NCBI GenBank assembly: GCA_041649575.1
Contig: JBAZMW010000002.1
Location: forward strand, 148,487-212,486
Reading direction: 5' to 3'
DNA: 64,000 nt
Origin: Patescibacteria group bacterium
Lineage (GTDB): Bacteria; Patescibacteriota; Patescibacteriia; 2-01-FULL-39-33
Below are positions 1 to 42,657 of this stretch, piece after piece. Under the pieces are notes generated by a model. The model had not been told where the DNA came from, made no database searches, and saw nothing but the letters and a program-made list of their open reading frames with translations. Every line of letters starts with the position of its first letter. Position 1 is the stretch's first letter. A program made the position numbers and the translations under genes.

Positions 1-876
1 GGCCTACTCTTTGTGGCCAGTTTGGTTAGTCTTTTCCTTTGGGGCCTAAGACCCGGTTTGGATTTTACCGGCGGCAGTCTCATGGAGCTGTCTTTTGCCA
101 CCAGTCGCCCCGGTTCTCAAGAAGTCTCCGCCGCGCTGGTGCCGTTGAATCTAGGGGATTTGATAGTTCAGCAGGCCGGGGAAAAAGAAATAATGTTGCG
201 TTTTAAGGCCGTTGACGAAGCGACGCATCAGGGTATTTTACAAACTATTAGCGATAAATTTGCCGCTGATTCTCCGGAACAAATCAAAGAATTGCAGTTT
301 GAATCCATTGGTCCGGTTATCGGTAAAGAGTTGCAGCAAAAAGCCTGGTGGCAGATATTTTTGGTTTCTTTGGGCATTATTATTTACATCGCTTTTGCTT
401 TTCGAAAGGTTTCCAAACCGCTGGCCTCCTGGAAATATGGCGTCTCGGCCATTATCGCCTTGCTTCACGACATTGTTATTGTTGCCGGCTTTTTCTCGGT
501 CTTGGGGCATTTCTTTAATGTAGAAATCGACGCCTTGTTTATTACGGCTCTTTTAACCATCATGGGTTTTTCCGTTCATGACACCATTGTGGTTTTTGAC
601 CGTACCAGAGAAAATATCACCCGTCATCATGGCGGCACTTTTGCCGAAGTGGTTAATGATAGCGTCAACCAGACCATTGTTCGCTCCGTCAACACTTCTC
701 TAACGGTGCTATTGGTGTTGTTGTCGCTTTATATTTTGGGAGGCGCGACTATCAAAAACTTTGTTTTGGCTCTGCTTTTTGGCATTGCCATTGGCACTTA
801 TTCCTCTATCTTTGTCGCCAGTCCGGTAATTGTTGACTGGAATAATTTTGGCAAGAAAACAAAATCAGCCAGATAA
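1..876 (+). CDS. secF: Protein-export membrane protein SecF, 5' partial
   Basis: Open frame from the window edge. TM-rich C-terminal half with VFDRTRENI...LYILGG matches the SecF C-terminus (E. coli VFDRIRENF...LYLFGG). Confidence 0.75.
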   Translation, partial: GLLFVASLVSLFLWGLRPGLDFTGGSLMELSFATSRPGSQEVSAALVPLNLGDLIVQQAGEKEIMLRFKAVDEATHQGILQTISDKFAADSPEQIKELQFESIGPVIGKELQQKAWWQIFLVSLGIIIYIAFAFRKVSKPLASWKYGVSAIIALLHDIVIVAGFFSVLGHFFNVEIDALFITALLTIMGFSVHDTIVVFDRTRENITRHHGGTFAEVVNDSVNQTIVRSVNTSLTVLLVLLSLYILGGATIKNFVLALLFGIAIGTYSSIFVASPVIVDWNNFGKKTKSAR

Positions 877-1023
877 TTATTAATCATTTTAGTCAAGCAA
901 GCTCTAAAAAAATAGAGTTTGTTTTTTTATTGACAAAAATATTTATTTTTGATATAATAAAGTAAATAATAAAAAGTTTATTATTTTTTAGCTAGATTTA
1001 GCTGAAATATTTATATTTTTAAT

Positions 1024-2181
1024 ATGTCTATTTTAGATCAAGTTAGAAAAAATCAATTTCAGGACAATTTAGCCGGTTTTAATCCCGTGTCCACTCTTAA
1101 TACTTTATTTTCCAGTCTAAGCGACAAAGAAAGAGATGTTGTTAGGCGGCGTTTTGGCTTGGGTACGGATCGCAAATATACCTTGGAAGAAATCGGCAAA
1201 CAATACGGCATTACTCGGGAAAGAGTGCGCCAGATAGAGAGTTTAAGCATCAAAAAATTAAAAGAACTTCAAGAATTGAAAGAAGAAATCGAAAAAGCCG
1301 AAAAAGTTGTGGTTCAGCTGTTGGAGCAGTATGGCGGCGTTATGGAACAAGATTTCTTTTTGGAAAAAGTCCTTAATTATTTAGAGGCCCAAGAAAATAT
1401 CGAGAATGTCTTGTTGTTTTTGGCCGAACACATTTTTTCCGACAATGTCTCCAAGGTCCGCCAGGACAAGGAATTCAATAATTTATGGAGAACCGATAGC
1501 GCCGATGTCACCTCGCTGAAGGATATTGTTAATGAGATGGTCCGAGTGATCAGTCAAAACAATCAGCCCGTTCAGCTGCAGAACTTGCTTAACAGTTTCA
1601 AAGACTCCGAATTCTATCAAAAAAACAAAGATAAAATTCTTTCTCGGGCGGTTTTTTTGGAAGCCACCGAAGAGGACGTGGATAAAATTTTAGAGAGTTA
1701 TCTGCGCGCTAGCCGCAAAATCAAATCCAATTTGTTTGACGAGTGGGGCTTGGTCTCTTGGGGCACTGTTCAACCCAAGAAGATCAATGATAAAATATAT
1801 ATGGCCCTAAAGAAAGCCGGCAAGCCTTTGCATTTCACCGAGATTGCCAATTTAATCAACGAAACCAAGTTCGACGATAAAATCGCTTATCCGCCCACCG
1901 TTCATAATGAATTGATTTTGGATGACAAATATGTTTTGGTCGGCCGCGGTATTTACGCTCTGAAAGAATGGGGCTATAATCCCGGCAATGTGGCCGATGT
2001 TTTAGAGGAAGTGTTAAAGGAAAATGGTCCTTTAACCCGCGACGAAGTTATCGAAAAAGTTTTGGCCAAGCGCCAAGTCAAGAAATCAACCGTCTATTTG
2101 TCGCTGATGAACAACAGCCAGATCAAGAAAAACGAGCAGGGCAAATACTATTTACTGGACGATACTGCCAAAAGTTTATAA
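1024..2181 (+). CDS. Sigma-70 region-4 HTH domain protein with a C-terminal region of unknown function
   Basis: RRRFGLGTD..YTLEEIGKQYGITRERVRQIE is a classic sigma-70 r4 / HTH_Sigma70 motif. The remaining ~300 aa has no recognisable domain. Confidence 0.6.
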   Translation: MSILDQVRKNQFQDNLAGFNPVSTLNTLFSSLSDKERDVVRRRFGLGTDRKYTLEEIGKQYGITRERVRQIESLSIKKLKELQELKEEIEKAEKVVVQLLEQYGGVMEQDFFLEKVLNYLEAQENIENVLLFLAEHIFSDNVSKVRQDKEFNNLWRTDSADVTSLKDIVNEMVRVISQNNQPVQLQNLLNSFKDSEFYQKNKDKILSRAVFLEATEEDVDKILESYLRASRKIKSNLFDEWGLVSWGTVQPKKINDKIYMALKKAGKPLHFTEIANLINETKFDDKIAYPPTVHNELILDDKYVLVGRGIYALKEWGYNPGNVADVLEEVLKENGPLTRDEVIEKVLAKRQVKKSTVYLSLMNNSQIKKNEQGKYYLLDDTAKSL

Positions 2182-2256
2182 ACTTTAATTGTCAGCTAAA
2201 GTTAGCGTTTCAGACGCTAATCTAAGATAGTCTAAAACTCAGGAAGGTGACAAGGT

Positions 2257-3804
2257 ATGGGAATTGAACTTAATTTTGATTTGGCTTCAGTTTGGGAAAG
2301 TTTCGTAATTTTTGCTTCCCAGGATCCAATTACCATTGGCATTCAACTGTTTCTTAAAGGTGGTTGGGTGATTTTTTTAATTGTAATACTGACTGTTTTT
2401 TACGATGCGTGGCTAGATGCCCGCCAAGGCCAGTATGCCGGCAAGTGGCAGCATGTTCTCTTGGCTATCGATATTCCCAAAAACAATGAACAAACACCTA
2501 AGGCGGTAGAAAATCTTTTTGTCGCTTTGGCCGGTACGCAATCCAGCGGCAATTTGATTGATCGTTATTGGCATGGCAAAATACAAGAAAGTTTTTCCTT
2601 CGAAATCGTCAGTCTCGAAGGCTATATCCAATTTTTGGTGCGCACTCCCGTTCATTTCAGGGATCTGGTGGAGGCCGCTGTTTATGCCCAGTATCCGGAA
2701 GCGGAAATCACCGAAGTCGAGGATTACGCCAAGGATTATGCCGGATTGCGTTTTCCCAATGAGCAATATAATTTGTGGGGCACCGAATTGGTTCTGACCA
2801 AGGATTACCCCTATCCCATCAAAACTTATATTGATTTTGAACACACTTTGACCGGCAATTTTTTGGATCCCATGGCGGGGTTATTGGAGATTTTGAGCCG
2901 CTTCGGTCCCGGCGAGCAGCTCTGGCTGCAGCTGGTGGTGACGCCGTGGAAGCCGGACTGGGGCGAAAAAGCCAAAAAAGCCATCAAGACTCTTAAAGGA
3001 GAAAATTATGCTCCGCCGACCACCATAGCCGACAGGATAGCCAAACCAATCGAGTGGTTGGGCACTCAGGCCTTAAATGTCGCTAATGAATTTGCCGGCG
3101 GCGGGGGAGAGGGAGCCAGCAAAAAAGAGGAAGATCAGTGGAAAATGTTCAAACTTACTCCTGGAGAAAGACTGGTTTTTGAAAAAATTCAGCATAAATT
3201 GTCCAAAATTCCTTTCCGGGTGAAATTTCGCATGATTTATTTGGCCAAAAAAGATGTTTTTGCCAAAGGCCGGGGCGTAGCGGCTGTGATTGGCAATATT
3301 CAGCAGTTTAATGTCTCCGACGCCAATGGCTTCAAACCCGGCCCGAAAACCAAGACGGCGGTCGATTATTTTCGCGTTAAGAAAAGATTGGCGGAAAGGC
3401 AAAAAAGGATTTTGCGTCGTTTTATTGGCCGCAGTAATTTTTATGGCGAACCGGTCAGTAATATGTTTTTGAGTACCGAGGAATTAGCCACCCTTTGGCA
3501 TTTCCCGGTGATGACCGTTAAGGCGCCCAGGCTGGAAATGATTGGCTCCAGGCGAGCCGTTCCGCCCACTCGTTTGCCCTACAAAAGTCGTGGTTTTACC
3601 GTTGAAAAAGAGAGAGTTAGAACTTTGGCGGAAAGAGACGGCAGGATTGAAGAAAAAATTGAAGGTTCACTGGAATCTCATCCCCGGTCGCCAAAGTTAC
3701 CAGCGGTAGCGCCGCTGGTTCGGCCGGCCAATTTAACGGACAAATCGACCGAACCGCCGCCGCGAAGAAATCCCGAACCGCCGGCCAACTTACCCACTGT
3801 TTAA
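2257..3804 (+). CDS. Hypothetical membrane protein, N-terminal TM helix, probable partner of the downstream ATPase
   Basis: 515-aa ORF with a hydrophobic N-terminus (ITIGIQLFLKGGWVIFLIVILTVF). Ends 13 nt before the next ORF, so probably an operon. Confidence 0.45.
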   Translation: MGIELNFDLASVWESFVIFASQDPITIGIQLFLKGGWVIFLIVILTVFYDAWLDARQGQYAGKWQHVLLAIDIPKNNEQTPKAVENLFVALAGTQSSGNLIDRYWHGKIQESFSFEIVSLEGYIQFLVRTPVHFRDLVEAAVYAQYPEAEITEVEDYAKDYAGLRFPNEQYNLWGTELVLTKDYPYPIKTYIDFEHTLTGNFLDPMAGLLEILSRFGPGEQLWLQLVVTPWKPDWGEKAKKAIKTLKGENYAPPTTIADRIAKPIEWLGTQALNVANEFAGGGGEGASKKEEDQWKMFKLTPGERLVFEKIQHKLSKIPFRVKFRMIYLAKKDVFAKGRGVAAVIGNIQQFNVSDANGFKPGPKTKTAVDYFRVKKRLAERQKRILRRFIGRSNFYGEPVSNMFLSTEELATLWHFPVMTVKAPRLEMIGSRRAVPPTRLPYKSRGFTVEKERVRTLAERDGRIEEKIEGSLESHPRSPKLPAVAPLVRPANLTDKSTEPPPRRNPEPPANLPTV

Positions 3805-3816
3805 ATTTTCTAAAAA

Positions 3817-5418
3817 ATGACAGAAGAAAGCGTCGAACAAAAAAAAGAAATAACCATTTTTGCCGAAACCAATTTCCGCAACCAGCGGCGCAGTTTTGGT
3901 ATTAAGCGCGATGATCGCCGGCGCCATATGTATATTATCGGTAAGACCGGCATGGGCAAAACCACGCTTTTGGAAAACATGATTATTTCCGATATCATCA
4001 ACGGCGAAGGTTGTTGCTATATTGATCCTCATGGCGATACCGCCGAAAAAATTCTAAATTATATTCCTTCCCACCGGGTTAACGACGTGGTCTATTTCAA
4101 CCCGTCCGATACGGATTTTCCCATCGCTTTCAATATTCTGGAGGCGGTTGACGAAAAAAGCAAGCACTTGATCGCTTCCGGCTTGGTCGGAGTTTTCAAG
4201 AAGCAATTCGCCGACAGCTGGGGCCCGCGTTTGGAATATATTTTAAGAAATGCTATTTTAGCTCTTTTGGATTATCCCGGTAGTACGCTTTTGGGTATCA
4301 TGAGGATTTTGGTTGACGCCGATTATCGCGACAAGGTGATTGAGAAAGTCACTGATCCGGTGGTCAGGTCTTTTTGGACCAATGAATACACCAAATGGAA
4401 CGACCGGGTTTTGCAAGAGGTCATTTCGCCGATTCAAAACAAAGTGGGCCAATTTTTATCTAATTTTTTAATTCGCAACATCGTCGGTCAGGTCAAATCG
4501 ACCATTGATATGCGCGAGATCATCGACAACAAAAAAATAATGATAATGAACTTGTCCAAGGGCCGTATCGGCGAAGACACCATGCAGCTTTTGGGATCGA
4601 TGATTGTCACTAAATTGTATTTAGCGGCCATGAGCCGCGTTGATGTTCCCGAGCAGCAGCGCCAAGATTTTTATCTTTACGTTGATGAGTTCCAAAATTT
4701 TGCTACCGACAGTTTTGCCGATATTTTGTCAGAAGCCAGAAAATATCGCCTGAACCTGGTTATTGCCCACCAGTACATCGAGCAACTGCCGGAGCTGGTG
4801 ACTGCCGCGGTTTTTGGCAACGTGGGCACGCTGATCAGTTTCCGGGTGGGCGCTTCCGATGCCGAGAGCTTGGTGCGGGAATTCACTCCTACCTTTACTG
4901 AAGAAGACCTGGTTAACCTGCCTTCTTTTAATGTCTATCTGAAATTAATGATTGACGGCATTTCTTCCGATCCGTTCTCCGCCACCACTTTACCACCACT
5001 TTTCGACGAAATGATCACCGACAGCAGTGAAAAGGTCATTAAAGTTTCTCGCGAACGTTATGCCCATGGTCGTAAGGTAATAGAAGACAAAATTAACCGC
5101 TGGAGTGGCATTGATCTAAGTGAAAAGTTGGCCGAAGCCACCGTGGGCAAGGGAGTGCCGGTTGTCATTTCCGCTTCCGGCGACGGCGCGAAGAAGAAGA
5201 AAAAAAAGAAGAAAAAGAGCCAGGCCACCGCTGGCAATAATTTTTCCGTGGCCTGCGCTTCCTGCGGCACGCCGGTCAAGCTGAACTTTCAGCCCGATGG
5301 CAAGCGCCCGATTTTTTGCGAGAATTGCCTTAATCAAATGGCCAAAGAAGAAGTCAAGTCCGACGAGGACGATGGCTACCAGAGTTTGGAAGATTTAAAA
5401 AAGATTCTGGGCCGATAA
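3817..5418 (+). CDS. TraD/TraG/VirD4-family (T4SS coupling-protein-like) P-loop ATPase with poly-Lys tract and C-terminal Cys4 zinc ribbon
   Basis: Walker A GKTGMGKTT and Walker B LYVDEFQNF. Overall TraD/VirD4 architecture. C-terminus has K9 followed by CASCG..x17..CENC. Confidence 0.55.
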   Translation: MTEESVEQKKEITIFAETNFRNQRRSFGIKRDDRRRHMYIIGKTGMGKTTLLENMIISDIINGEGCCYIDPHGDTAEKILNYIPSHRVNDVVYFNPSDTDFPIAFNILEAVDEKSKHLIASGLVGVFKKQFADSWGPRLEYILRNAILALLDYPGSTLLGIMRILVDADYRDKVIEKVTDPVVRSFWTNEYTKWNDRVLQEVISPIQNKVGQFLSNFLIRNIVGQVKSTIDMREIIDNKKIMIMNLSKGRIGEDTMQLLGSMIVTKLYLAAMSRVDVPEQQRQDFYLYVDEFQNFATDSFADILSEARKYRLNLVIAHQYIEQLPELVTAAVFGNVGTLISFRVGASDAESLVREFTPTFTEEDLVNLPSFNVYLKLMIDGISSDPFSATTLPPLFDEMITDSSEKVIKVSRERYAHGRKVIEDKINRWSGIDLSEKLAEATVGKGVPVVISASGDGAKKKKKKKKKSQATAGNNFSVACASCGTPVKLNFQPDGKRPIFCENCLNQMAKEEVKSDEDDGYQSLEDLKKILGR

Positions 5419-5486
5419 AGCTATAAGCTAAGAGAGCGGCGCAGGAGCCGCTTTTATTTATCTTTAAAATGTGTTAAATTTTTCAT

Positions 5487-6035
5487 ATGTGGTCTGTTGT
5501 TTGGCAAGCTTTTTATTTGGCCTGGCCGGCTTATTTGGCCAATATGGCGCCGGTTATTTTCAAAAATTTTGGTTGGTTAAAATTTTTGGATCGGCCGATA
5601 GATGGCGGCAAAAAATTCGGCGGTGATTATCTTTTTGGACGGCACAAGACTTGGCGCGGGCTCCTGGCCGCTATCGTCGGCGGAGCTTTGGCCAGCTTTT
5701 TTCAGCTGATTCTTTATCGTTATCAGTTTTTCAGTTCTTTTTCTCTTTTTGACTACAACCAGCAGTGGCTGCTGGTCGGTTTACTTGGTGGTCTGGGCGC
5801 TATCCTGGGTGATTTGGCAAAAAGTTTTTTCAAACGTCGCCTGAAGATCGCCTCGGGCCGGTCTTGGCCGGTTTTTGACCAGTTGGATTTTATTTTTGGT
5901 TTTTTTGTTTTTGTTTATCTAACAGTCAGGCCGCCACTATTAGTGGTTGTCGTTGTTTTTCTAATCACCCTTATTCTTCATCCTTTGACTAATGTTTTTG
6001 CTTATCTTTTGAGATTTAAAAAAGTTTGGTGGTAA
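5487..6035 (+). CDS. CDP-archaeol synthase-like (DUF46/CarS family) membrane protein
   Basis: N-terminus AYLANMAPVIFKN..GGKKFGGDYLFG.HKTWRG is typical of the CarS family. Polytopic and small. Confidence 0.55.
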   Translation: MWSVVWQAFYLAWPAYLANMAPVIFKNFGWLKFLDRPIDGGKKFGGDYLFGRHKTWRGLLAAIVGGALASFFQLILYRYQFFSSFSLFDYNQQWLLVGLLGGLGAILGDLAKSFFKRRLKIASGRSWPVFDQLDFIFGFFVFVYLTVRPPLLVVVVVFLITLILHPLTNVFAYLLRFKKVWW

Positions 6036-6934
6036 TCAAGATGAAAAAAGCGTTAATTATTTTTAACCCCACCGCCGGCCTGGTTAGCAGACAGGATGTC
6101 CGCGGGCTGGTGGAAAAAAAATTGAAAGAGCTGGGCTTCGACTGGGAATTGTTTTTGCTTAACTCGGAGTTTGAAAAAAATATCTCCAGCTTTGATTTTT
6201 CCGGGCTCAAGTTGGTGGTGGCGGTGGGCGGTGACGGCACGATCAAGGTGGCGGCCCGCACCATTTTAAAAAACAAACTGACTTGCCCGTTGGCGGTCGT
6301 GCCTTTTGGTTCGGCCAATGTGATAGCTTCCACCCTGGCCATCCCCATTAGTATTAAAGAAGCTTTAAAGCTTTTAGACAAACCTAGTACCAAAAAAATC
6401 GACGTCGGCCTGATTAATGGCAACCGTTATTTTTTGGTCGGTTTTTCCTTGGGCTATATCTCCGACATCGTTATTAATACCGGCAAAGGACTGAAAAATC
6501 GTTTTGGTATGCTGGGCTATTTTTGGCGATTATTTTTTAATAAAATCAGAATCTCCCGGCTTAAATTCAAAATCCAAACCCGCAACAGGACTTTCTGGCT
6601 CAAGGGCAATAGCCTGATAATTTTTAACGCTTTCAATTATTTTGGTTTCCGGCCCAAAAGGCCTATCAGCATCAGCGACGGCATTTTTAATCTCTACGTC
6701 ATTACTAATAAGACTTTTTTTTCTTTGATCCGGGCTGGATTTTATATCCTGCTCTACCACCAGCCGCCGCGTTATGTTTTTACTTTGGATAATAATTTCT
6801 TTAGAATAACTCTGCGCCGTCAACACTTTCTCAAAACCGCTCAAATCGACGGCGATCATCTCAATTTGCCGCGGGAAATAATCATCGAGGTATTGCCCCG
6901 GGCGCTAGAAATGGTGGTAAAAAATAATGGCTAA
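6026..6934 (+). CDS. Lipid kinase of the DAGK_cat family (YegS/BmrU-like)
   Basis: VAVGGDGTI diacylglycerol-kinase catalytic motif. Overlaps the upstream CarS-like gene by 10 nt. Confidence 0.55.
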   Translation: MVVIKMKKALIIFNPTAGLVSRQDVRGLVEKKLKELGFDWELFLLNSEFEKNISSFDFSGLKLVVAVGGDGTIKVAARTILKNKLTCPLAVVPFGSANVIASTLAIPISIKEALKLLDKPSTKKIDVGLINGNRYFLVGFSLGYISDIVINTGKGLKNRFGMLGYFWRLFFNKIRISRLKFKIQTRNRTFWLKGNSLIIFNAFNYFGFRPKRPISISDGIFNLYVITNKTFFSLIRAGFYILLYHQPPRYVFTLDNNFFRITLRRQHFLKTAQIDGDHLNLPREIIIEVLPRALEMVVKNNG

Positions 6935-8045
6935 AGAAAAAGTGGTAGTAGCGATGAGTGGTGGCGTTGATTCCTCCGTCGCTGCGGCCTTACTCAAAAA
7001 ACAAGACTATGAAGTGGTTGGAGTTTTTATGCAGTTTTGGTTTCCCTTGTCTCGCCAGGGACAAGCGGAGGCGGGCTCGTTTACTAAAAATAAAACCATT
7101 CAGTCAAGTATAAATACCAAGGTTTACGAAGAAAACCGCTGTTGTAGTTTGAGGTCTTGGAACGAAGCGCAACAAGTGGCGCGAATTCTGGATTTTCCTG
7201 TTCGCAAGGTAAATTTCGGACGGCAATTCAAAAAACTGATTGTTGATGAATTTTTGCGTGAGTACAGACTGGGTCGCACTCCCAACCCTTGTGTCGCTTG
7301 CAATAAATTTATCAAATTTGATTTGTTGTTGAAATATGCGAGAACTGTTTTTGGTGCGGATTATTTGGCTACCGGGCACTATGCTAGCTTGGTGTCATTC
7401 AAATTAGGACGGCCCAAAGACAGACAAAAAGACCAGACTTATTTTTTGTATAATTTAAAACAAGCACAATTAAAGCACCTGCTTTTTCCGCTTGGTAATT
7501 ATACTAAAAATGAGGTCAGAAAATTGGCTAAGAAGTTTAAGCTGCCGGTTTTTGATAAGCCGGACAGCCAGGAAATCTGTTTTGTGGGGCAGTCACATTA
7601 TGATTTTTTGAAGAAATATTTGCGCTTACAGCCGGGTAAAATCATTAGCAACCAAGGAAAAATATTGAGAACGCATCAGGGTCTGCCCTTGTATACCCTG
7701 GGCCAAAGGAGCGGCTTGGGGCTTTCGGGCGGACCGTGGTATGTGGCTGAAATGGATTATAAAAAAAATCGGCTGGTTGTCACCAAAAAAGAAAAGCAGT
7801 CAGCAATCTTTCGAAAAGAATTAGTCGCCCAAAAAGTTAATTGGCTTTTTGGCGAACCAAAATTTCCTCTCATATGCCAGGCGCAAATTCGTTATCATGC
7901 CCGGTCGGCCAGTTGTCTGGTGAAAAAGCAGGACCAAAAGATTGTTGTTGAATTCAGGCAAAAGCAGCGGGCGATAATGCCCGGCCAATCTGTGGTTTTT
8001 TATCAAGGTGATGAGCTGTTGGGCGGGGGAGTGATAGTGGGTTAG
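6927..8045 (+). CDS. mnmA: tRNA-specific 2-thiouridylase MnmA
   Basis: VVAMSGGVDSSVAA PP-loop, RTPNPCVACN, GADYLATGHYA and DQTYFLY motifs. Carries a ~24-aa insertion after the PP-loop. Confidence 0.85.
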   Translation: MAKEKVVVAMSGGVDSSVAAALLKKQDYEVVGVFMQFWFPLSRQGQAEAGSFTKNKTIQSSINTKVYEENRCCSLRSWNEAQQVARILDFPVRKVNFGRQFKKLIVDEFLREYRLGRTPNPCVACNKFIKFDLLLKYARTVFGADYLATGHYASLVSFKLGRPKDRQKDQTYFLYNLKQAQLKHLLFPLGNYTKNEVRKLAKKFKLPVFDKPDSQEICFVGQSHYDFLKKYLRLQPGKIISNQGKILRTHQGLPLYTLGQRSGLGLSGGPWYVAEMDYKKNRLVVTKKEKQSAIFRKELVAQKVNWLFGEPKFPLICQAQIRYHARSASCLVKKQDQKIVVEFRQKQRAIMPGQSVVFYQGDELLGGGVIVG

Positions 8046-8173
8046 TACAGAAGGAGTCAGGTTAATAATAAAAAAAGAAGACAAAGATCGGGCAGAAGAG
8101 GTTTTAGAAATTGGTAATAAGTAAATTATTAATAATAAACAAAGATTTAACGTTTGACATAATTTTGAAAGCA

Positions 8174-8205
8174 TAATAAGATAATATATCTTTCTCCAGA
8201 GAGAA
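8174..8205 (+). promoter_or_regulatory. Sigma-70-like promoter (TTGACA..N17..TAAGATAAT) for high-GC cassette A
   Basis: TTGACA at 8174 and a TAAGATAAT -10 region. The same TAAGATAAT motif recurs at 9196-9231. Confidence 0.4.
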
Positions 8206-8284
8206 TGATTCATAGTCCACTTGTGGTGGAAGATGATTGCACAAAAGACAAGGGAACAGGAACCCAAGAAGGAGGCTGTACGTC

Positions 8285-9106
8285 ATGATTAAAAGAACCG
8301 TCGTGGGGCGACTTTTCCGTGATTCTGGCGCATTCGGCCAGTTGACGCCGCCGCCCGGTCTGGAGGGAACCATTGGTGATCCCGATTGGGATTTCTTCTC
8401 GAAGCTGCCGCCGCGTTTTGATTTTCTGGAACTCTGCGATCGGGTCGGCCACGCTTTTGAGATGTCCGAGTCACCCATCTCGCCCTCCGACTGGGAGGAC
8501 CAGTTCGAAAGTCAGAAGGAGCGGCTGCTCGCTCTGTCCGGCTGCTCTGATGGCCATGGCATCGTGCTTTTGCCCGGCCTATTGCCAGTGGCTCCCGGTG
8601 ATTGTATCAGGAAGAGCCTTTTCAATGTCTACATCCCGGCGGTAGAACGCGGCTACGGGGCGATCTATCCCAAGAGGGCTTTTGAGGATTGGTGTGATGG
8701 TCGGGCGGACAGTGTCGCGGCTTTTCCCGGAGTGGGCCACGAGCATCTAATCCACCTCGCCAGTAAAGGCTTGGTCGCCGTCTTCGTCTACATCGCCCAT
8801 TGTATGCGGGCGTGGCCCGTCTCGACCCAGCGCCGACTGCCACGGAAGTTGTTCAAATCGAATTTCTCCTTGGCCGGCGGCTGTGACACGCTTTCCGTCC
8901 TGTCTCTGCACCCTGATATTCTCGCCGCTGGTTTCTGTAGCCCGACGATCGAGCTCAGTGCCTTGCAGACAGATTCGCCGCGCCTCTCGATCTGCGTGGT
9001 GCCAGAAGACAAACGCCTCAGACTCGACATCTGGGGTAATCCCGACGATTTCGCGCCTGAAGCTTCAGGAGGGCTTTCGTTCTGGAAGGAGCAACCTGTC
9101 TTCTAG
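8285..9106 (+). CDS. Hypothetical protein, high-GC, no recognised domain
   Basis: AAGGAGG sits 10 nt upstream of ATG 8285. GC is far above the flanks. The 273-aa product has no motif I recognise. Confidence 0.5.
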   Translation: MIKRTVVGRLFRDSGAFGQLTPPPGLEGTIGDPDWDFFSKLPPRFDFLELCDRVGHAFEMSESPISPSDWEDQFESQKERLLALSGCSDGHGIVLLPGLLPVAPGDCIRKSLFNVYIPAVERGYGAIYPKRAFEDWCDGRADSVAAFPGVGHEHLIHLASKGLVAVFVYIAHCMRAWPVSTQRRLPRKLFKSNFSLAGGCDTLSVLSLHPDILAAGFCSPTIELSALQTDSPRLSICVVPEDKRLRLDIWGNPDDFAPEASGGLSFWKEQPVF

Positions 9107-9277
9107 CTGGCGCGCCTTAGCCGGCTGCCGGAGTTCTCTAATTGGGGCTAGTGATCATACCAATCACCGGCCTCTGTTTTTTGTTTTAAGCGTAGTTGAC
9201 ATTGATAATGAAAACCCTTAAGATAATCTTTCGATCTTTCAAGTTAAACTAGTAAGGCAACCATGGAGGGAGCTGCC

Positions 9278-10015
9278 ATGTTTCTGGTATTATTTTCCAT
9301 TCTGGTCTACCCAGTGGCCTTTGTCACCTTCGTCGTTTGCGCCTCAATCTACCTGGCGTTTGTCTTTGTCTTCAAGTCGCTGGGCTGGGAGCTGCAGTAC
9401 CTGGGGCCGTTGGTTCGGTTTCTGGCTCGCGTGATTCTCTTGAGTTGTGGCCAATGGCTCAAGGTTGGGGGCAACTGGCCCTCTCCGACTATCGGGCCTT
9501 GCATCTTTCTCTTCAACCACAGCTCTATCCTGGATGCTCTGGTGGCTGGCGCGGTGCTAAAAGGACGGTTCACTGGCGTGGCTGCCCAGGAGTATTTCTT
9601 TTGGCCGCTGTGGGGAACCATTATGCGCTGGCACAATATCATTCCCATCAAGCGCAAGTGCCACGACGAGGCCATAGAGAGCATGCGGCGGGCGGAAGAG
9701 GCGATAAAAAACGGCTGGTCAATAGGCGGCTTTCCCGAGGGCACCAGAAGCAAGACAGGAGAGTTGCAGCCGTTCAAAAAGGGCCTTTTCTATGTGGCCA
9801 AGGCCACGGGCGCGCCGATCGTGGTGATAGCCATCAAGGGGGCGTACCGTGCCAAGAGTCGCGTCGGTTGGTGTGTTCGGCCGGGAGTGATAACGGCCAC
9901 TATCGGCAAACCCTGGACCCTGTGGTCTAACGGAAAGCAACGGTATGCGGCCTTGTCGGTGGAAGAGTTAAGGCAACTGGCCGAAGGGCTCATGGCAACC
10001 ATGCTCGAAAGTTGA
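9278..10015 (+). CDS. 1-acyl-sn-glycerol-3-phosphate acyltransferase-like (PlsC/LPLAT family), high-GC
   Basis: NHSSILD (HX4D) and FPEGTRS acyltransferase motifs. Has its own TTGACA..TAAGATAAT promoter at 9196-9231 and a GGAGGG SD before ATG 9278. Confidence 0.7.
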   Translation: MFLVLFSILVYPVAFVTFVVCASIYLAFVFVFKSLGWELQYLGPLVRFLARVILLSCGQWLKVGGNWPSPTIGPCIFLFNHSSILDALVAGAVLKGRFTGVAAQEYFFWPLWGTIMRWHNIIPIKRKCHDEAIESMRRAEEAIKNGWSIGGFPEGTRSKTGELQPFKKGLFYVAKATGAPIVVIAIKGAYRAKSRVGWCVRPGVITATIGKPWTLWSNGKQRYAALSVEELRQLAEGLMATMLES

Positions 10016-10123: not shown

Positions 10124-11941
10124 ATGACCGCCAAAGAACTCAAACAAAAATATTTAGAATTTTTTGAGCGCCACGGCCACCAGATTATTCCTGGCGCCTC
10201 ACTGATTCCGGAGAACGACCCGACGGTTTTATTTACCACGGCCGGCATGCATCCGCTCGTGCCTTATCTGCTTGGCGAAAAGCATCCCGCCGGCACACGC
10301 CTGGCCGATGTCCAAAAATGCATCAGGACCGGCGACATCGACAGCGTGGGCGACGACTGGCATCTGACTTTTTTTGAAATGCTGGGCAATTGGTCGCTGG
10401 GCGACCCCAAGGATCCCAAAGGGATCGGGGCAGGTTATTTCAAAAAAGAAGCCATTGAGATGAGTTTTGAATTTTTAACCAAAGAGTTAAATATACCTTT
10501 GGAAAAATTGGCGGTTTCTTGCTTCGCCGGCGATGATGATGCGCCAAAAGACGAAGAATCGGCGAGTGCTTGGCGTTCGCTGGGGATCAGTGACAAACGG
10601 ATTGCTTTTTTGAGTAAGGAAGATAATTGGTGGCCGGCCGGTGGCAAAATGCCCGGTCCTCAAGGCCCGGACACGGAGATGTTTTATTGGAACTCGGATG
10701 AGTCGGCGCCGGAAGATTTCGACCCACAGGACAAGCGCTGGGTGGAAATCTGGAATGATGTTTTTATGCAATATAACAAGGCCGCCGACGGCAGCTACCA
10801 GCCGCTGGTGCAACAAAATGTCGATACCGGCATGGGATTGGAGCGTACCGTTGCTATCTTAAACGGCAAAAAAAGCGTCTACGAAATCGAGCCGCTCTTA
10901 ACCGTTTGTTCGCAAGTAACGGCTTTATTCGAGAGCACCCTGGAAGAACTGGAAGCCGAACAAACCAAAGCCGTCAGAATCATTGCCGATCATTTGCGCG
11001 CCGCCGTCTTTATTTTGGCCGAGAGCGTGGCGCCCTCCAACGTTGAACGTGGCTATGTCCTGCGCCGGCTGATTCGGCGCGCTATTCGCTATGGCAAGCA
11101 ACTGGGCATCAAAGACGCTTTCACTGCCAAAGTGGCCGAAGTGGTCATCGCGCAAATGGGCGGATTTTATAAGGAACTAAGAGAACAGCGAGATTTCATT
11201 ATCGATGAATTAAACAACGAAGAAGAAAAGTTTAGCGCTACTTTAGAAAACGGCTTAAAAAAGTTTGAAAAATTAAAAATTGACGAGCAAAAAAAGATCA
11301 GCGGCCAAGATGCTTTTATTCTTTTTTCCACTTATGGTTTCCCTTTGGAGATTACCAAAGACTTGGCCACCGAGCGCGGTTGGCAAGTTGACGAAGAAAA
11401 TTTTAATCTAGAATTTGCCAAGCATCAGGACATTTCCCGAAAAGGCGCCGAGCAAAAATTCAAGGGCGGTTTGGCCGATAATAGCGAAGTGACGGCCAAG
11501 ATGCATACCGCCACGCATTTGATGTTGGCGGCTTTGCGCCGGGTGTTGGGCGATCACGTTTACCAAAAAGGTGCCAACATCACCAGCGAGCGCATTCGCT
11601 TTGATTTTTCCCATGGCGAAAAAATGACAGCAGAACAAATCAAGCAAGTGGAAGACTTGGTCAATGAACAAATTAATAAAAAGATTCCCGTGGTCTGCGA
11701 AGAAATGACGCTAGAAGAAGCCAAGGAGAGGGGAGCGATGGGAGTTTTTAAAAATAAATACGGCGAGCGGGTTAAGGTTTATACCGTCGGCGATCCCTCG
11801 GCAGGATCGGGACAGGTTTTTTCCAAAGAGATTTGCGGCGGTCCGCATGCCGCCAACACCGGTGATCTGGGCCACTTCAAAATCCAAAAAGAAGAATCCA
11901 GCTCCGCCGGAGTCAGAAGAATTAAGGCGGTTCTGGAGTGA
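10124..11941 (+). CDS. alaS: Alanine--tRNA ligase, short form lacking the C-terminal C-Ala/DHHA1 region
   Basis: N-terminus LEFFERHGHQIIPGASLIPENDPTVLFTTAGM is AlaS class II. Editing-site HTATHLMLAALR and CGGPH are present. Only 605 aa versus ~870 typical. Confidence 0.85.
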   Translation: MTAKELKQKYLEFFERHGHQIIPGASLIPENDPTVLFTTAGMHPLVPYLLGEKHPAGTRLADVQKCIRTGDIDSVGDDWHLTFFEMLGNWSLGDPKDPKGIGAGYFKKEAIEMSFEFLTKELNIPLEKLAVSCFAGDDDAPKDEESASAWRSLGISDKRIAFLSKEDNWWPAGGKMPGPQGPDTEMFYWNSDESAPEDFDPQDKRWVEIWNDVFMQYNKAADGSYQPLVQQNVDTGMGLERTVAILNGKKSVYEIEPLLTVCSQVTALFESTLEELEAEQTKAVRIIADHLRAAVFILAESVAPSNVERGYVLRRLIRRAIRYGKQLGIKDAFTAKVAEVVIAQMGGFYKELREQRDFIIDELNNEEEKFSATLENGLKKFEKLKIDEQKKISGQDAFILFSTYGFPLEITKDLATERGWQVDEENFNLEFAKHQDISRKGAEQKFKGGLADNSEVTAKMHTATHLMLAALRRVLGDHVYQKGANITSERIRFDFSHGEKMTAEQIKQVEDLVNEQINKKIPVVCEEMTLEEAKERGAMGVFKNKYGERVKVYTVGDPSAGSGQVFSKEICGGPHAANTGDLGHFKIQKEESSSAGVRRIKAVLE

Positions 11942-39984: not shown

Positions 39985-40289
39985 ATACCAGCCTTTTTTG
40001 CAAAAGTAAATCAGTCTTGTTATAATAAAAGTGGTTCATTTCCTCGAGACCCGAACTGGTCATTTGGGTCTCACCGCTCCGGTGGGGAAGCGAAACCAGC
40101 GCCTTCGCTTCCCCTCTGGCTTAACCAAAGCACCTTGGTAGCACTTCCCGGGTCTACTGAAAGCCGCATCCAGGCAAGCATTAGACCCGTTCCCGCTGTG
40201 GCGGCCGATGGCATCAGTCATCAGCCGTCCTTTTTGTTTATCCACAGTTAAATATTTATAACCAAAGAAATCTTTGCTATAATAAAATC

Positions 40290-40626
40290 ACATTGGACAT
40301 GGGGCTTGTCAAATGGCCCTGCAACCAGTCCGAACGGAGAACGAGCCATGAGAACAAAGACAACGAAGCGAGCAGCAGTGGGCGTGATGGTCGATGGCAC
40401 CGGCGGAACAGCGTACTTGGCGACGTCCTGACCTAACGAGAACGGTCGGACTGGGCGTCAAAGAAGTTCTCCGAGACGCTTGACTCAACCCAAGCGTCTC
40501 GCCGCACCTTAACTCTCCTCGGAGAGTTGTGACTATAGGTTTTCACGCTTTGACAAAGCGTGGACATCCCCCTAAGGTGAGCAGTCGGTTGCTGACAGGT
40601 AGCCGACTCTCTTTTTGTTTTTAAAA
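40290..40626 (+). ncRNA. Candidate ~330-nt GC-rich structured RNA with embedded 27-codon ORF and intrinsic terminator
   Basis: TATAAT at 40276. Perfect hairpins gagacgcttg..caagcgtctc, cacgcttt..aaagcgtg and ctctcc..ggagag. Long-range pair ccagtccga/tcggactgg. Terminator agtcggttgctgacaggtagccgact plus T-run. GGAGAA SD before ATG 40347 (MRTKTTKRAAVGVMVDGTGGTAYLATS). Confidence 0.35.
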
Positions 40627-40755
40627 AATTTAGTTATCCACAGGTACTATTTATTTCTTTAAAAAATAGTTATATAATGAAAGTGCGGAAGGTATTTACG
40701 ATAGCGTACAACCGAAGCAGGCCATCGGCCAAACGATCGGCCAAACGAAAGAAAG

Positions 40756-41259
40756 GTGGGACGGAAGATGAGAAAGTTCGTGTTTTGTACGGTAGTACTG
40801 GCGTTCGCGTTTGTGATGATTCCGGCGACGAATACTCCGGCATACGCGACGCAACTCGATCAAGGCAAGGCAGTGGCGACGGCTCCGACGACGATGGGGA
40901 CGACGCAGCAGGACGTGCAGACGGCGATGAAGAGCAACCTGGTCCTCGACGGCACCGGGCAGAAAGTCGCTGAAGTGATGAAGGCGCCGACTCTTGACTC
41001 CGGACGAGTGATTGCGCAGACGGCGACGACGAAGACGGCACGCGAAGAGCAGACGAAGATCACGGCGAAGAGTGACACGGTTGTAACGGCGAAGATCGAA
41101 GCGCAAGGCATGGGCGAGCAGATGGCAGCGGCTGGCGAAGATGACGCTGGCACGATCATCGTGGCGACGAAGAGTGACACCTATGCGACGAGAATCGAGG
41201 GCCGTATCGCTCACGACGCGGACGCGACCTTCAATGCGAACGTTCTGATCATCGGCTAA
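40756..41259 (+). CDS. Secreted low-complexity Thr/Ala-rich protein, high-GC
   Basis: AAAGGTGGGACGGAAG SD region. Signal peptide MRKFVFCTVVLAFAFVMIPATNTPAYA. The rest is T/A/K-rich with no domain. Confidence 0.5.
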   Translation: MGRKMRKFVFCTVVLAFAFVMIPATNTPAYATQLDQGKAVATAPTTMGTTQQDVQTAMKSNLVLDGTGQKVAEVMKAPTLDSGRVIAQTATTKTAREEQTKITAKSDTVVTAKIEAQGMGEQMAAAGEDDAGTIIVATKSDTYATRIEGRIAHDADATFNANVLIIG

Positions 41260-41431
41260 CCACGCGGGCAGCGCCGAAAGTCAGAACGAGTAGTACCTTG
41301 GATACACAACCGATACCGGCCAACAGTCGGATCGGCCACCTCCAGAGTTGGGTCAGCTGGCAACGGCGACCCTCTCTTTTTTTGTTTTGAAAAAATTTGC
41401 CAAAATTTTATAAATTTTTTATACTATAAGC

Positions 41432-41756
41432 AAGCGGTTCCTGCTGTGGGAACCGTGCACATTGGGTCAACGGGTCAACCGGAGGGTACAAGCAATATGA
41501 AAAAGGAAATGAGAGCGCAGGGTTTGGTCGTGGCGAAATGGAAGTAGGCTAGACCGTAGCAAGGCAACTTAGCGTTGTTGGGCGGAGGCCCCAACTAACA
41601 GTGGGCCTCCGCTGAATCTTTCCCTCGCTTGAGCGGGGTGCTGGTATATCCTTCTCTGAAGGGGTTCCCCCGTTGGGAAGTGTTGCCCATTCAACGCCTC
41701 CTGACCGCACAGGCTGCAATTTGTCGCAAGACGAAGGGCAGCCTGAATTATTTTTT
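41432..41756 (+). ncRNA. Candidate ~320-nt GC-rich structured RNA with 16-codon ORF, upstream of the radical SAM gene
   Basis: 11-bp hairpin ggcggaggccc..gggcctccgcc. GGAGGG SD before ATG 41497 (MKKEMRAQGLVVAKWK). Ends with stem caggctgc..gcagcctg plus T-run immediately before the radical-SAM promoter. Confidence 0.3.
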
Positions 41757-41781
41757 GCTATACTTAATTTATACTGAATTT

Positions 41782-42657
41782 ATGAGAGCAGCCAAATTTT
41801 ACAAAAAATCAGGGGCTAATGTTAAATGTCAGCTTTGTCGGCATTTTTGTCTGATTGCCCCAGCCAAGTTCGGCCTCTGCGGCATGAGGAAGAATATCGA
41901 CGGCCGGCTTTATTCTCTTAATTACGGTAAAATCATTGCCAGCCAGATTGACCCGATCGAAAAAAAACCGCTCTATCATTTTTTGCCAGGCAGTTTTGCT
42001 TATTCTTTGGCTTGCCCCGGCTGTAATTTTAAATGCCTTAATTGCCAAAATTCCGATCTTTCCCAAATCACCCCGGCTTTACAAAAGGCCGTTGATTCTT
42101 TGCCGGAAACCAGGCCGGAAGAGATTGTCGAGGCGGCCTGGGAAAACAATTGCCCGTCAATCGCTTATACCTATACCGAGCCCACCATTTTTGCCGAGTT
42201 TGCTCTCGACTGCATGGAGCTGGCCAGAGACAGTAATCTAAAAAATATCTGGGTTTCCAATGGCTATCTGTCGCCCGGTTGTCTGGAGGCCATCAGCCCC
42301 TATCTTGACGCCATTAATATTGATTTGAAATTTTTTAGCGATAAAAATTATCAAAAAATTTGCGGCGCTCGCCTAAAACCAGTCTTGGATAATCTGGTTG
42401 CTTTTAAAACAGCCAAAATTCATTTGGAAATCACCACTTTAATCATTCCCTCACTTAATGATAGCGATGAAGAGTTAACCGCTCTGGCAGAGTTTATTTA
42501 TCAAAAATTGGGCGACGACACGCCCTGGCATCTGGGCGCCTTTCACCCCGCTTACAAATTAAAAAATTTACCGGCTACGCCGACAGAAACCATCAAGCGG
42601 GCCCAGGCAATCGGGAAAAATATCGGCCTGAAATATGTTTATCCGGGAAATGTTTGA
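41782..42657 (+). CDS. AmmeMemoRadiSam-system radical SAM enzyme (PflA-like)
   Basis: AKFYKK...KCQLCRHFC...GLCGMRKN.DGRLYSLNYGK...DPIEKKPLYHFLPGS...CPGCNFKCLNCQN matches the family signature. Start moved downstream from the ORF-track start to MRAAKF. Confidence 0.7.
   Translation: MRAAKFYKKSGANVKCQLCRHFCLIAPAKFGLCGMRKNIDGRLYSLNYGKIIASQIDPIEKKPLYHFLPGSFAYSLACPGCNFKCLNCQNSDLSQITPALQKAVDSLPETRPEEIVEAAWENNCPSIAYTYTEPTIFAEFALDCMELARDSNLKNIWVSNGYLSPGCLEAISPYLDAINIDLKFFSDKNYQKICGARLKPVLDNLVAFKTAKIHLEITTLIIPSLNDSDEELTALAEFIYQKLGDDTPWHLGAFHPAYKLKNLPATPTETIKRAQAIGKNIGLKYVYPGNV

Follow-up and report, generated by a model that had tools for sequence, protein, structure and literature searches.

Organization of the locus

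The locus lies in a 64-kb window (the whole stretch of DNA analysed) of a MAG from the Patescibacteria (CPR), in which the annotated neighbours are housekeeping genes throughout. It comprises two genes on the plus strand, in one frame and separated by 12 nt: the first encodes a DUF8128 membrane protein and the second a P-loop ATPase of the VirD4/TrwB type (Table 1). An earlier sequence-only reading of this DNA had described a membrane protein paired with a VirD4/TraD-like ATPase and no other T4SS genes in the window. The coordinates, the transmembrane stretch, the P-loop and the Pfam matches all agree with that description, and no T4SS, pilin or relaxase gene was found across the whole 64 kb. 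The DUF8128 gene is preceded by a Shine-Dalgarno-like AGGAAGGTG and by a gene for a protein that contains sigma-70 region 4 only (residues 29–81) and an RNAP-delta-like HARE-HTH domain (residues 256–316). The promoter-like site upstream of this neighbour is a possible start of a three-gene transcript, as judged from its sequence, and the intergenic gap at 2181–2257 contains no terminator-like site, the weak terminator-like matches within the ORFs being disregarded. An Rfam search of positions 800–6200 gave no match.

Table 1. Coordinates of the genes and predicted features of the locus
Feature	Position	Strand	Basis
Promoter-like site, sigma-70-type (TTGACA-17-TATAAT, with TG)	930–958	+	12/12 matches; pattern match only
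Sigma-r4/HARE-HTH gene, 385 aa	1024–2181	+	Conserved neighbour upstream of DUF8128
DUF8128 (PF26449) membrane protein, 515 aa	2257–3804	+	Precomputed Pfam assignment for identical protein
Single transmembrane helix, about aa 25–50	2329–2406	+	Hydropathy; AF2 helix 24–62
Globular alpha/beta domain, aa 65–420	2449–3516	+	AF2 pLDDT mostly >90; VirB4 NTD fold
Disordered Pro/Arg-rich tail, aa 425–515	3529–3801	+	AF2 pLDDT <50
VirD4/TrwB-type P-loop ATPase without TMD, 533 aa	3817–5418	+	Pfam/NCBIfam profiles; AF2 pLDDT 82.8
Walker A GKTGMGKT, aa 42–49	3940–3963	+	Invariant in 89 homologues
All-helical insertion in nucleotide-binding domain, aa 113–237	4153–4527	+	AF2 secondary structure
Walker B YLYVDE, D290 and E291 invariant	4672–4689	+	Aligns with TrwB Walker B region
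Disordered basic linker with K9 tract, aa 431–475	5107–5241	+	AF2 pLDDT <50 for aa 445–469
Treble-clef Cys4 zinc finger, CxxC-x17-CxxC (C480, C483, C501, C504)	5242–5340	+	PF23477, TIGR04272
Intrinsic-terminator-like hairpin and T-tract closing the unit	5432–5465	+	9-bp stem, 5 GC pairs, then TTTT ATTTATCTTT

Domain structure of the two proteins

The DUF8128 protein lacks a P-loop, and its hydropathy profile rises to a KD19 maximum of 2.2 in a single, strongly hydrophobic stretch. Its N terminus is acidic, with no K/R and four D/E residues, and three K/R residues follow the helix; because of this charge pattern, the positive-inside rule suggests that the protein is oriented N-out with its globular domain in the cytoplasm. 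The AF2 model (pLDDT 84.4, pTM 0.76) gives this domain the predicted fold of the VirB4 N-terminal domain (NTD), which is its best structural match; the resemblance to EccE of the type VII (ESX) EccE-EccC system is weaker. The link with the VirB4 NTD appears to be structural only and without a sequence-level signal: the DUF8128 profile matched no PDB sequence at E values up to 10, and 91 DUF8128 members scanned against Pfam, also at E up to 10, gave scattered noise and no VirB4-NTD family. The tail of the protein ends in a PPxNLP motif (residues 508–513, nt 3778–3795), in which P508, P509, N511, L512 and P513 are each either invariant or conserved to 90% or more, and this tail may tether the protein to the ATPase half. 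The family is large, a search of a representative library having yielded 3,287 clusters with E values of 1e-3 or below; the best 150 of these are all ordinary DUF8128 proteins.

The ATPase scores above the gathering cut-offs of three Pfam families of T4CPs, namely PF10412 TrwB_AAD_bind (E 1.2e-11, 44.6 bits versus a cut-off of 20.5), PF02534 T4SS-DNA_transf (21.6 bits versus 20.1) and PF12696 TraG-D_C (24.2 bits versus 22). SXT_TraD and the CD1115 VirD4-like family are the top NCBIfam matches, the scores being far under the equivalog cut-offs (TIGR03743, 49.7 of 366 bits; NF045973, 47.5 of 250; TIGR02759, 12.6 of 521), and TrwB and DotL are the top PDB sequence matches. The AF2 model has a RecA-like core, placing the chain among the P-loop nucleotide-binding domains of the FtsK/HerA superfamily, and the predicted helical insertion may correspond to the all-alpha domain of T4CPs, being at the position of that domain, with PF10412 aligning across residues 32–344. 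The hydropathy profile contains no hydrophobic stretch (KD19 maximum 1.41), and the N-terminal TMD of T4CPs is absent. A HerA/FtsK-type housekeeping ATPase, the outcome that the sequence-only reading had set against its own proposal of a type IV coupling-protein module, was rejected on scores, and the chain resolves to neither type by its profiles or closest structural neighbours. The module proposal itself is borne out by the three gathering scores and by the fusion of DUF8128 to the same type of ATPase elsewhere.

The CxxC-x17-CxxC ribbon and the lysine tract that had been noted at the C terminus of the ATPase are both present. PF23477 zf_Tbcl_2 matches residues 475–508 above its cut-off (E 3.2e-9, 36.8 bits versus 27), TIGR04272 CxxC-x17-CxxC falls just below its own (35.1 bits versus 36), and the AF2 model contains a β-hairpin and a helix at a pLDDT of about 90. 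The zinc finger is predicted in 117 of the 120 close homologues listed and, among the complete ATPases encoded downstream in GTDB loci, in 45 of 60. The CxxC-x17-CxxC domain binds zinc in small proteins of M. mazei (PMC12704099).

The lysine tract comprises residues 459–467 (nt 5191–5217), encoded by AAG AAG AAG AAA AAA AAG AAG AAA AAG. The lysine content of the protein predicts about 6e-8 runs of this kind, and the long ORFs of the window contain no other lysine run of at least six. The sequence-only reading had called the homopolymer unusual and had suggested its length as a possible sign of slippage or phase variation. That the tract is a slippage-prone switch for the zinc-finger tail is a reading that we regard as very unlikely. 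The tract does include an A8 run, its longest homopolymer, and a short (GAA)n-like array detected by TRF at 5190–5218, and close relatives have runs of K7 to K10 at the same place. However, an A8 run is ordinary here, there being 20 A/T runs of at least eight in the window, and the mixed AAG and AAA codons interrupt the homopolymer. Moreover, a low-complexity basic linker of varying length and composition occurs in all 120 homologues listed, most of which have K runs of two or three, and runs of at least six occur in only seven of them. A scan of metagenome contigs for length variants gave 0 matches, but it did not find the locus itself in those contigs either. From these sequences, the K9 tract appears to be just one form that a variable basic linker takes.

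Conservation of the pair and its fused homologues

The ATPase gene lies directly 3′ of the DUF8128 gene in 67 of 80 species-representative loci, and two further loci end at a contig edge; 11 of the 78 informative loci have no adjacent ATPase. The pair is usually preceded by secDF and then by the sigma-r4/HARE-HTH gene, which is immediately 5′ of DUF8128 in 51 of the 80 loci, and the order SecD-SecF-SigHARE-DUF8128-ATPase recurs in loci L002 and L003; the sigma-r4/HARE-HTH protein may be part of the module. The median identity of the ATPase is 62% and exceeds that of SecF in 43 of 43 loci. Across at least 578 species, the gene is a conserved, single-copy-like member of the core with a fixed position among housekeeping genes. 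Neither such conservation nor a housekeeping operon linked to secDF is usual in a conjugative T4CP.

The genomic context bears on whether the ATPase could belong to anti-phage defence, as do HerA, DptH and MADS mad8. The chain has the fold and detectable sequence similarity in common with mad8, the DptH/DndH C-domain and HerA; PADLOC matches it to mad8 (E 2.9e-17) and weakly to HerA and DndH. Among 475 plasmid records with tblastn matches, 388 are non-mobilizable, and 127 records are from Pseudomonas, which may represent mad8-type homologues. The defence reading is nevertheless rejected because of the context and retains only the slightest probability: the CPR pair occupies a core housekeeping locus and not a defence island of the variable kind, its neighbours include no effector gene (nuclease, methylase, Sir2 or any other), and DUF8128 has no PADLOC match.

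In many actinobacterial homologues, PF26449 and PF10412 are found within one chain. Fusions occur in Embleya, Streptomyces, Frankia, Nonomuraea and, in the Bacillota, on Priestia megaterium pFDU301A (hmmsearch E 6.6e-19 for the fused copy); homologues of the N-terminal 410 residues of the 812-aa Embleya T4CP (WP_331738717.1) carry PF26449. In hhalign, the CPR DUF8128 alignment is collinear with the actinobacterial N-terminal domains through 300 columns, within which the ELATLWHFP and PPTRLP motifs fall. The fusions and the CPR pair thus have the same two domains in equal order, with both halves collinear and the ATPase 34–36% identical. They differ in that the fusions are single chains, have no zinc finger listed and are much less conserved than the CPR pair. 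The fusion on the Embleya plasmid is flanked on one side by VirB6-like, PrgI/VirB3 and VirB4-like genes and on the other by replication-relaxation and NlpC/P60 genes; it is associated with VirB4/MPF and relaxase-like genes, as the CPR pair is not within 64 kb. Because DUF8128 forms the N-terminal part of one chain with the same ATPase in the Actinobacteria and Priestia, the CPR genes very probably encode a split DUF8128-type T4CP, a member of the VirD4/TrwB family in the FtsK/HerA superfamily that is made as two polypeptides.

The fold of the DUF8128 domain admits a different reading of the split, in which an NTD-like and a CTD-like chain would rebuild a VirB4-type ATPase for assembly or pilus biogenesis rather than a substrate receptor. 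It agrees with the best structural match, and the succession of transmembrane segment, NTD and CTD is that of the VirB3-VirB4 architecture. We consider it improbable, however, since the sequence profiles all favour T4CP families and TIGR00929 matches the P-loop only (21.4 bits versus a cut-off of 643). VirB4 (TrwK of R388; VirB3-VirB4 fusions) shares with DUF8128 a fold but not sequence membership, and the CPR pair is two chains. In the Embleya cluster, moreover, a separate VirB4-like ATPase (TraC_F_IV and AAA_10) stands beside the fusion, which itself holds the T4CP position next to a relaxase-like gene.

Proposed function of the gene pair

As a split T4CP, the pair resembles VirD4, TrwB and TraD in its P-loop nucleotide-binding domain, probably also in the predicted helical insertion, and differs from them in the following respects. 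(i) The ATPase chain has no N-terminal TMD, the membrane part being the separate DUF8128 protein. (ii) The acidic, TraM-binding C-terminal tail of T4CPs is replaced by a zinc finger. (iii) The 64-kb window around the pair contains no T4SS or relaxase genes. A comparable division of labour has been proposed for pIP501, in which membrane anchoring of the coupling protein TraJ would need a separate membrane protein, TraI (PMC12857230). TraI is a small protein with two transmembrane segments, whereas the DUF8128 protein has a 355-aa VirB4-NTD-like cytoplasmic domain.

The domain identities and structural similarities, the relation between split and fused forms, the adjacency of the genes, their strong conservation and their housekeeping context are directly supported, and they frame the mechanism that we propose. 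The DUF8128 protein would supply the membrane anchor, through its one transmembrane helix, and the cytoplasmic domain of VirB4-NTD fold, and the downstream protein would supply the ATPase motor with the helical insertion in its nucleotide-binding domain, probably as a hexamer, together with a CPR-specific tail of disordered lysine-rich linker and treble-clef zinc finger. The two halves would come together on the cytoplasmic side of the membrane, with the PPxNLP tail as a possible point of contact; the linker and the zinc finger would bring in a substrate or adaptor, for which nucleic acid or nucleoprotein is the likeliest candidate; and the motor would pass the substrate to a chromosomal T4SS of the monoderm Patescibacteria type encoded elsewhere. 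One functional T4CP in two chains that hands substrate to a T4SS is the best overall explanation, and we favour it by a little over an even chance. For the T4SS-coupled mechanism taken by itself, we judge the probabilities to be evenly balanced.

VirD4-like T4CPs number 5,713 in 2,918 Patescibacteria genomes, only 148 of them being near virB4, and VirB4 itself is reported in fewer genomes (2,417 of 3,035); relaxases are rare (PMC12102498). In Southlakia epibionticum, no coupling or relaxase proteins are recognisable in the T4SS cluster (PMC10633639), and t4cp is dispensable for epibiotic growth, whereas the T4SS is essential (PMC12102498). The number of T4CPs away from virB4 and the S. epibionticum cluster without a coupling protein speak for the proposed explanation. 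The lack of a T4SS gene within 64 kb, the greater frequency of T4CP homologues than of VirB4, the dispensability of t4cp, the rarity of relaxases, the level of conservation and the secDF linkage all stand against T4SS coupling. The loci that have no adjacent ATPase and the purely structural link between DUF8128 and the VirB4 NTD also count against the explanation as a whole.

The same observations are consistent with exaptation of the split T4CP as a housekeeping translocase that works alone, independently of any T4SS, at the Patescibacteria membrane. Such a translocase might transport DNA or RNA or hold it in place, for example when nucleic acid is taken up or salvaged or when the chromosome is handled during division, with the zinc finger and linker as its grip on nucleic acid. 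The authors of the survey raise exaptation themselves (PMC12102498), and it is in keeping with the housekeeping operon and its conserved linkage to secDF, with an ATPase more conserved than SecF and with a zinc-finger tail that is specific to the CPR. On the other hand, homologous fusions are found in a T4SS cluster, t4cp is often encoded far from virB4 in any case (PMC12102498), and incompleteness of the MAGs could account for some of the genomes with T4CP and without VirB4. We regard exaptation as possible but doubtful. Equally tentative is the broader proposal of a T4SS-independent core translocase throughout the phylum (for example, a motor for import, export or segregation of nucleic acids in organisms unable to make nucleotides), with the succession of transmembrane segment, VirB4-NTD-like domain and T4CP as a possible surviving intermediate between VirB4 and VirD4.

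The identity of the split T4CP matters because Patescibacteria depend on host cells and the T4SS is essential in their sole genetically tractable strain. T4CP homologues are abundant in the phylum and remote from VirB4 (PMC10633639, PMC12102498), and the conserved one is half of a two-gene unit. DUF8128, so far uncharacterised, gains its first structural and contextual annotation, and its combination with a T4CP bears on the divergence of VirB4 and VirD4. This distinct T4CP architecture spans the Patescibacteria, Actinobacteria and Bacillota. The N-terminal 340 residues of a Bradyrhizobium homologue have no DUF8128 match, and a Sulfitobacter homologue is an orphan ATPase next to transposases; the partner is therefore missing from some relatives. 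The architecture possibly extends to haloarchaea, where an ORF upstream of the Halobacterium homologue matches DUF8128 weakly in two collinear pieces (E 1.4e-3), a lead rather than a finding.

The two open reading frames and their conservation

ORF A and ORF B share a frame with a 12-nt gap between them, and their positions, the lysine run and the CxxC-x17-CxxC motif are as the sequence-only reading had described. ORF A, the DUF8128 (PF26449) protein, has a single hydrophobic helix (approximately residues 25–50) and lacks a P-loop; in ORF B a Walker A motif spans residues 42–49 and hydrophobic segments are absent. The proposed resemblance of the ATPase to type IV coupling proteins (T4CPs) is borne out, with ORF B exceeding the gathering scores of PF10412 (TrwB_AAD_bind), PF02534 (T4SS-DNA_transf) and PF12696 (TraG-D_C) and having TrwB and DotL as its top PDB sequence matches. 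Its C-terminal end is the PF23477/TIGR04272 finger.

Features of the gene pair and its flanks (window positions)
Feature	Position	Strand	Detail
Consensus promoter-like site	930-958		5' of the gene preceding ORF A; perfect TTGACA-17-TATAAT
Sigma-region-4/HARE-HTH gene	1024-2181	+	385 aa; sigma-70 region 4 at aa 29-81, no region 2; RNAP-delta-like HARE-HTH domain at aa 256-316
ORF A	2257-3804	+	515 aa
ORF B	3817-5418	+	533 aa
K9 run in ORF B	5191-5217	+	mixed AAG/AAA codons; longest homopolymer A8
Terminator-like hairpin	5432-5455		3' of ORF B
CDP-archaeol-synthase-family (CarS-like), DAGK-family lipid kinase and acyltransferase genes	5487-6934, 9263-10015	+	directly 3' of the pair
ORF in GC-rich stretch	8237-9106	+	289 aa listed, 273 aa called; no Pfam match
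Alanyl-tRNA synthetase	10124-11941	+	605 aa (short); Pfam matches recorded, tRNA-synt_2c and tRNA_SAD only

A Patescibacteria MAG encodes proteins identical to those of ORF A and ORF B on a 235-kb contig. The neighborhood consists of housekeeping genes: rpsB, tsf, gap, secD, secF and a sigma-region-4/HARE-HTH gene upstream, and a CarS-like gene, DAGK, mnmA, alaS, infA, rpsM, rpsK, rpsD and rpoA downstream. The remaining window genes encode aminoacyl-tRNA synthetases, UvrD, glycosyltransferases, a Liv-type ABC transporter and FtsX. As had been claimed, no VirB4, pilin, relaxase or any further type IV secretion system (T4SS) gene is present in the 64-kb window.

The search for ATPase homologues yielded more than 8,000; the best 120 are 60–85% identical to ORF B and retain the zinc finger in 117 cases. 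At least 578 GTDB species representatives encode a DUF8128 relative, and 3,287 clusters at 50% identity contain one. In the 80 best DUF8128 species loci, the ATPase gene lies immediately 3' of DUF8128 in 67 (a contig end intervenes in two others), the sigma-region-4/HARE-HTH gene lies immediately 5' in 51, and secF occurs on the 5' side, inside the retrieved region, in 45. Compared with the window proteins, the ATPases have a median identity of 62%, SecF 51%, DUF8128 41% and MnmA 39%, and the ATPase is more conserved than SecF in 43 of 43 loci.

Fused homologues and a probable coupling-protein architecture

When plasmids were searched by tblastn, 475 records contained relatives. The match on an Embleya plasmid is the C-terminal half of an 812-residue protein whose gene is flanked on one side by VirB6-like, PrgI/VirB3 and VirB4-like genes and on the other by replication-relaxation and NlpC/P60 genes; this cluster is a monoderm T4SS in which the protein occupies the T4CP position. 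PF26449 is found on homologues of its N-terminal 410 residues, and many proteins from Streptomyces, Frankia, Nonomuraea and Acidimicrobiia carry PF26449 and PF10412 on one chain. The Patescibacteria DUF8128 alignment is collinear with those N-terminal domains over ~300 columns (hhalign), a stretch that includes the conserved ELATLWHFP and PPTRLP motifs, which end just before the ATPase. In Priestia megaterium the two parts are fused in a copy that appears to be frameshifted, and the ORF upstream of a Halobacterium T4CP-like gene is weakly DUF8128-like.

Because DUF8128 and the T4CP ATPase are fused and collinear in these proteins, one of them in a T4SS cluster, the Patescibacteria pair is very probably the two-gene version of a separate type of coupling protein. 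The predicted order is a transmembrane segment, DUF8128 with a VirB4-NTD fold, and the T4CP ATPase. Orphan Patescibacteria T4CP homologues are already published and the genes are automatically annotated; the searched literature describes neither DUF8128 as the partner nor the VirB4-NTD-like fold of that domain, and likewise neither the split/fused relation to actinobacterial T4SS-cluster proteins nor the conserved secDF-linked locus.

Proposed mechanism and possible relation to type IV secretion

The best-supported arrangement is an anchor (DUF8128), a ring (ATPase) and a recruiting tail. The DUF8128 protein would hold the motor at the cytoplasmic membrane face, a topology favored by the positive-inside rule; the ATPase would assemble as the usual ring, and its linker and finger would recruit substrate. 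In all 120 homologues compared, this linker is basic, of low complexity and variable in length, and K runs of six or more occur in seven, the closest relatives among them, which makes the K9 tract a local case of a general feature. The lysine homopolymer singled out by the sequence-only reading is real and AAG/AAA-encoded but probably not a special switch, for which the homologue comparison gave no evidence. CxxC-x17-CxxC domains of Methanosarcina small proteins bind zinc (PMC12704099); the basic linker beside the finger suggests a nucleic acid ligand.

There is an even chance that the motor docks on a chromosomal Patescibacteria T4SS: the fused homologue lies within a T4SS cluster, Patescibacteria T4SSs descend from monoderm MPF-FATA systems (PMC12102498), and the S. 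epibionticum T4SS cluster has no recognizable coupling protein (PMC10633639). That the motor acts alone, independent of a T4SS, is a weaker possibility. Among 3,035 genomes, T4CP homologues occur in 2,918 versus 2,417 for VirB4, just 148 of 5,713 T4CP homologues are near virB4, and relaxases are scarce among Patescibacteria (PMC12102498). In S. epibionticum the T4SS is essential while the t4cp, a possible orthologue of the DUF8128-linked form, is dispensable (PMC12102498). The housekeeping-level conservation and surroundings of the ATPase gene here also favor independence.

Other relatives and features of the locus

The closest relative of the ATPase outside Patescibacteria (40% identity) is an orphan 395-residue gene adjoining transposases on a Sulfitobacter plasmid (L086, 7986-9173). 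Among the plasmid records with matches, 388 of 475 are non-mobilizable (127 of these Pseudomonas), and ORF B is similar to mad8, a defence gene of the MADS system (E 2.9e-17, PADLOC). Because of these relatives, the T4CP-like ATPase type may have been recruited repeatedly into non-conjugative roles.

In some species (L042, L069, L070, L074, L077, L078 and L080), the place of the ATPase gene 3' of DUF8128 is taken by a conserved series of genes, first a glycosyltransferase-like one (MKIGIDARFYGP...) and then two large ones. The sigma-region-4/HARE-HTH gene keeps its place upstream even there; its product may be a third module member or an unrelated RNAP-associated factor. SecD, just upstream of the window (L001, the locus with identical proteins, 4306-6132), has internal parvulin-type rotamase (PPIase) domains, also present in L002 (2482-4167) and L003 (2191-4014) and thus kept across three divergent Patescibacteria loci. 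The CarS-like, DAGK and acyltransferase genes look like a lipid-salvage cluster, the first two being conserved solely in the closest relatives (L003, L004 and L007). Local GC is 0.535 at 8001-10000 and 0.512 in a second GC-rich stretch at 40001-42000, against about 0.40–0.46 across most of the window.
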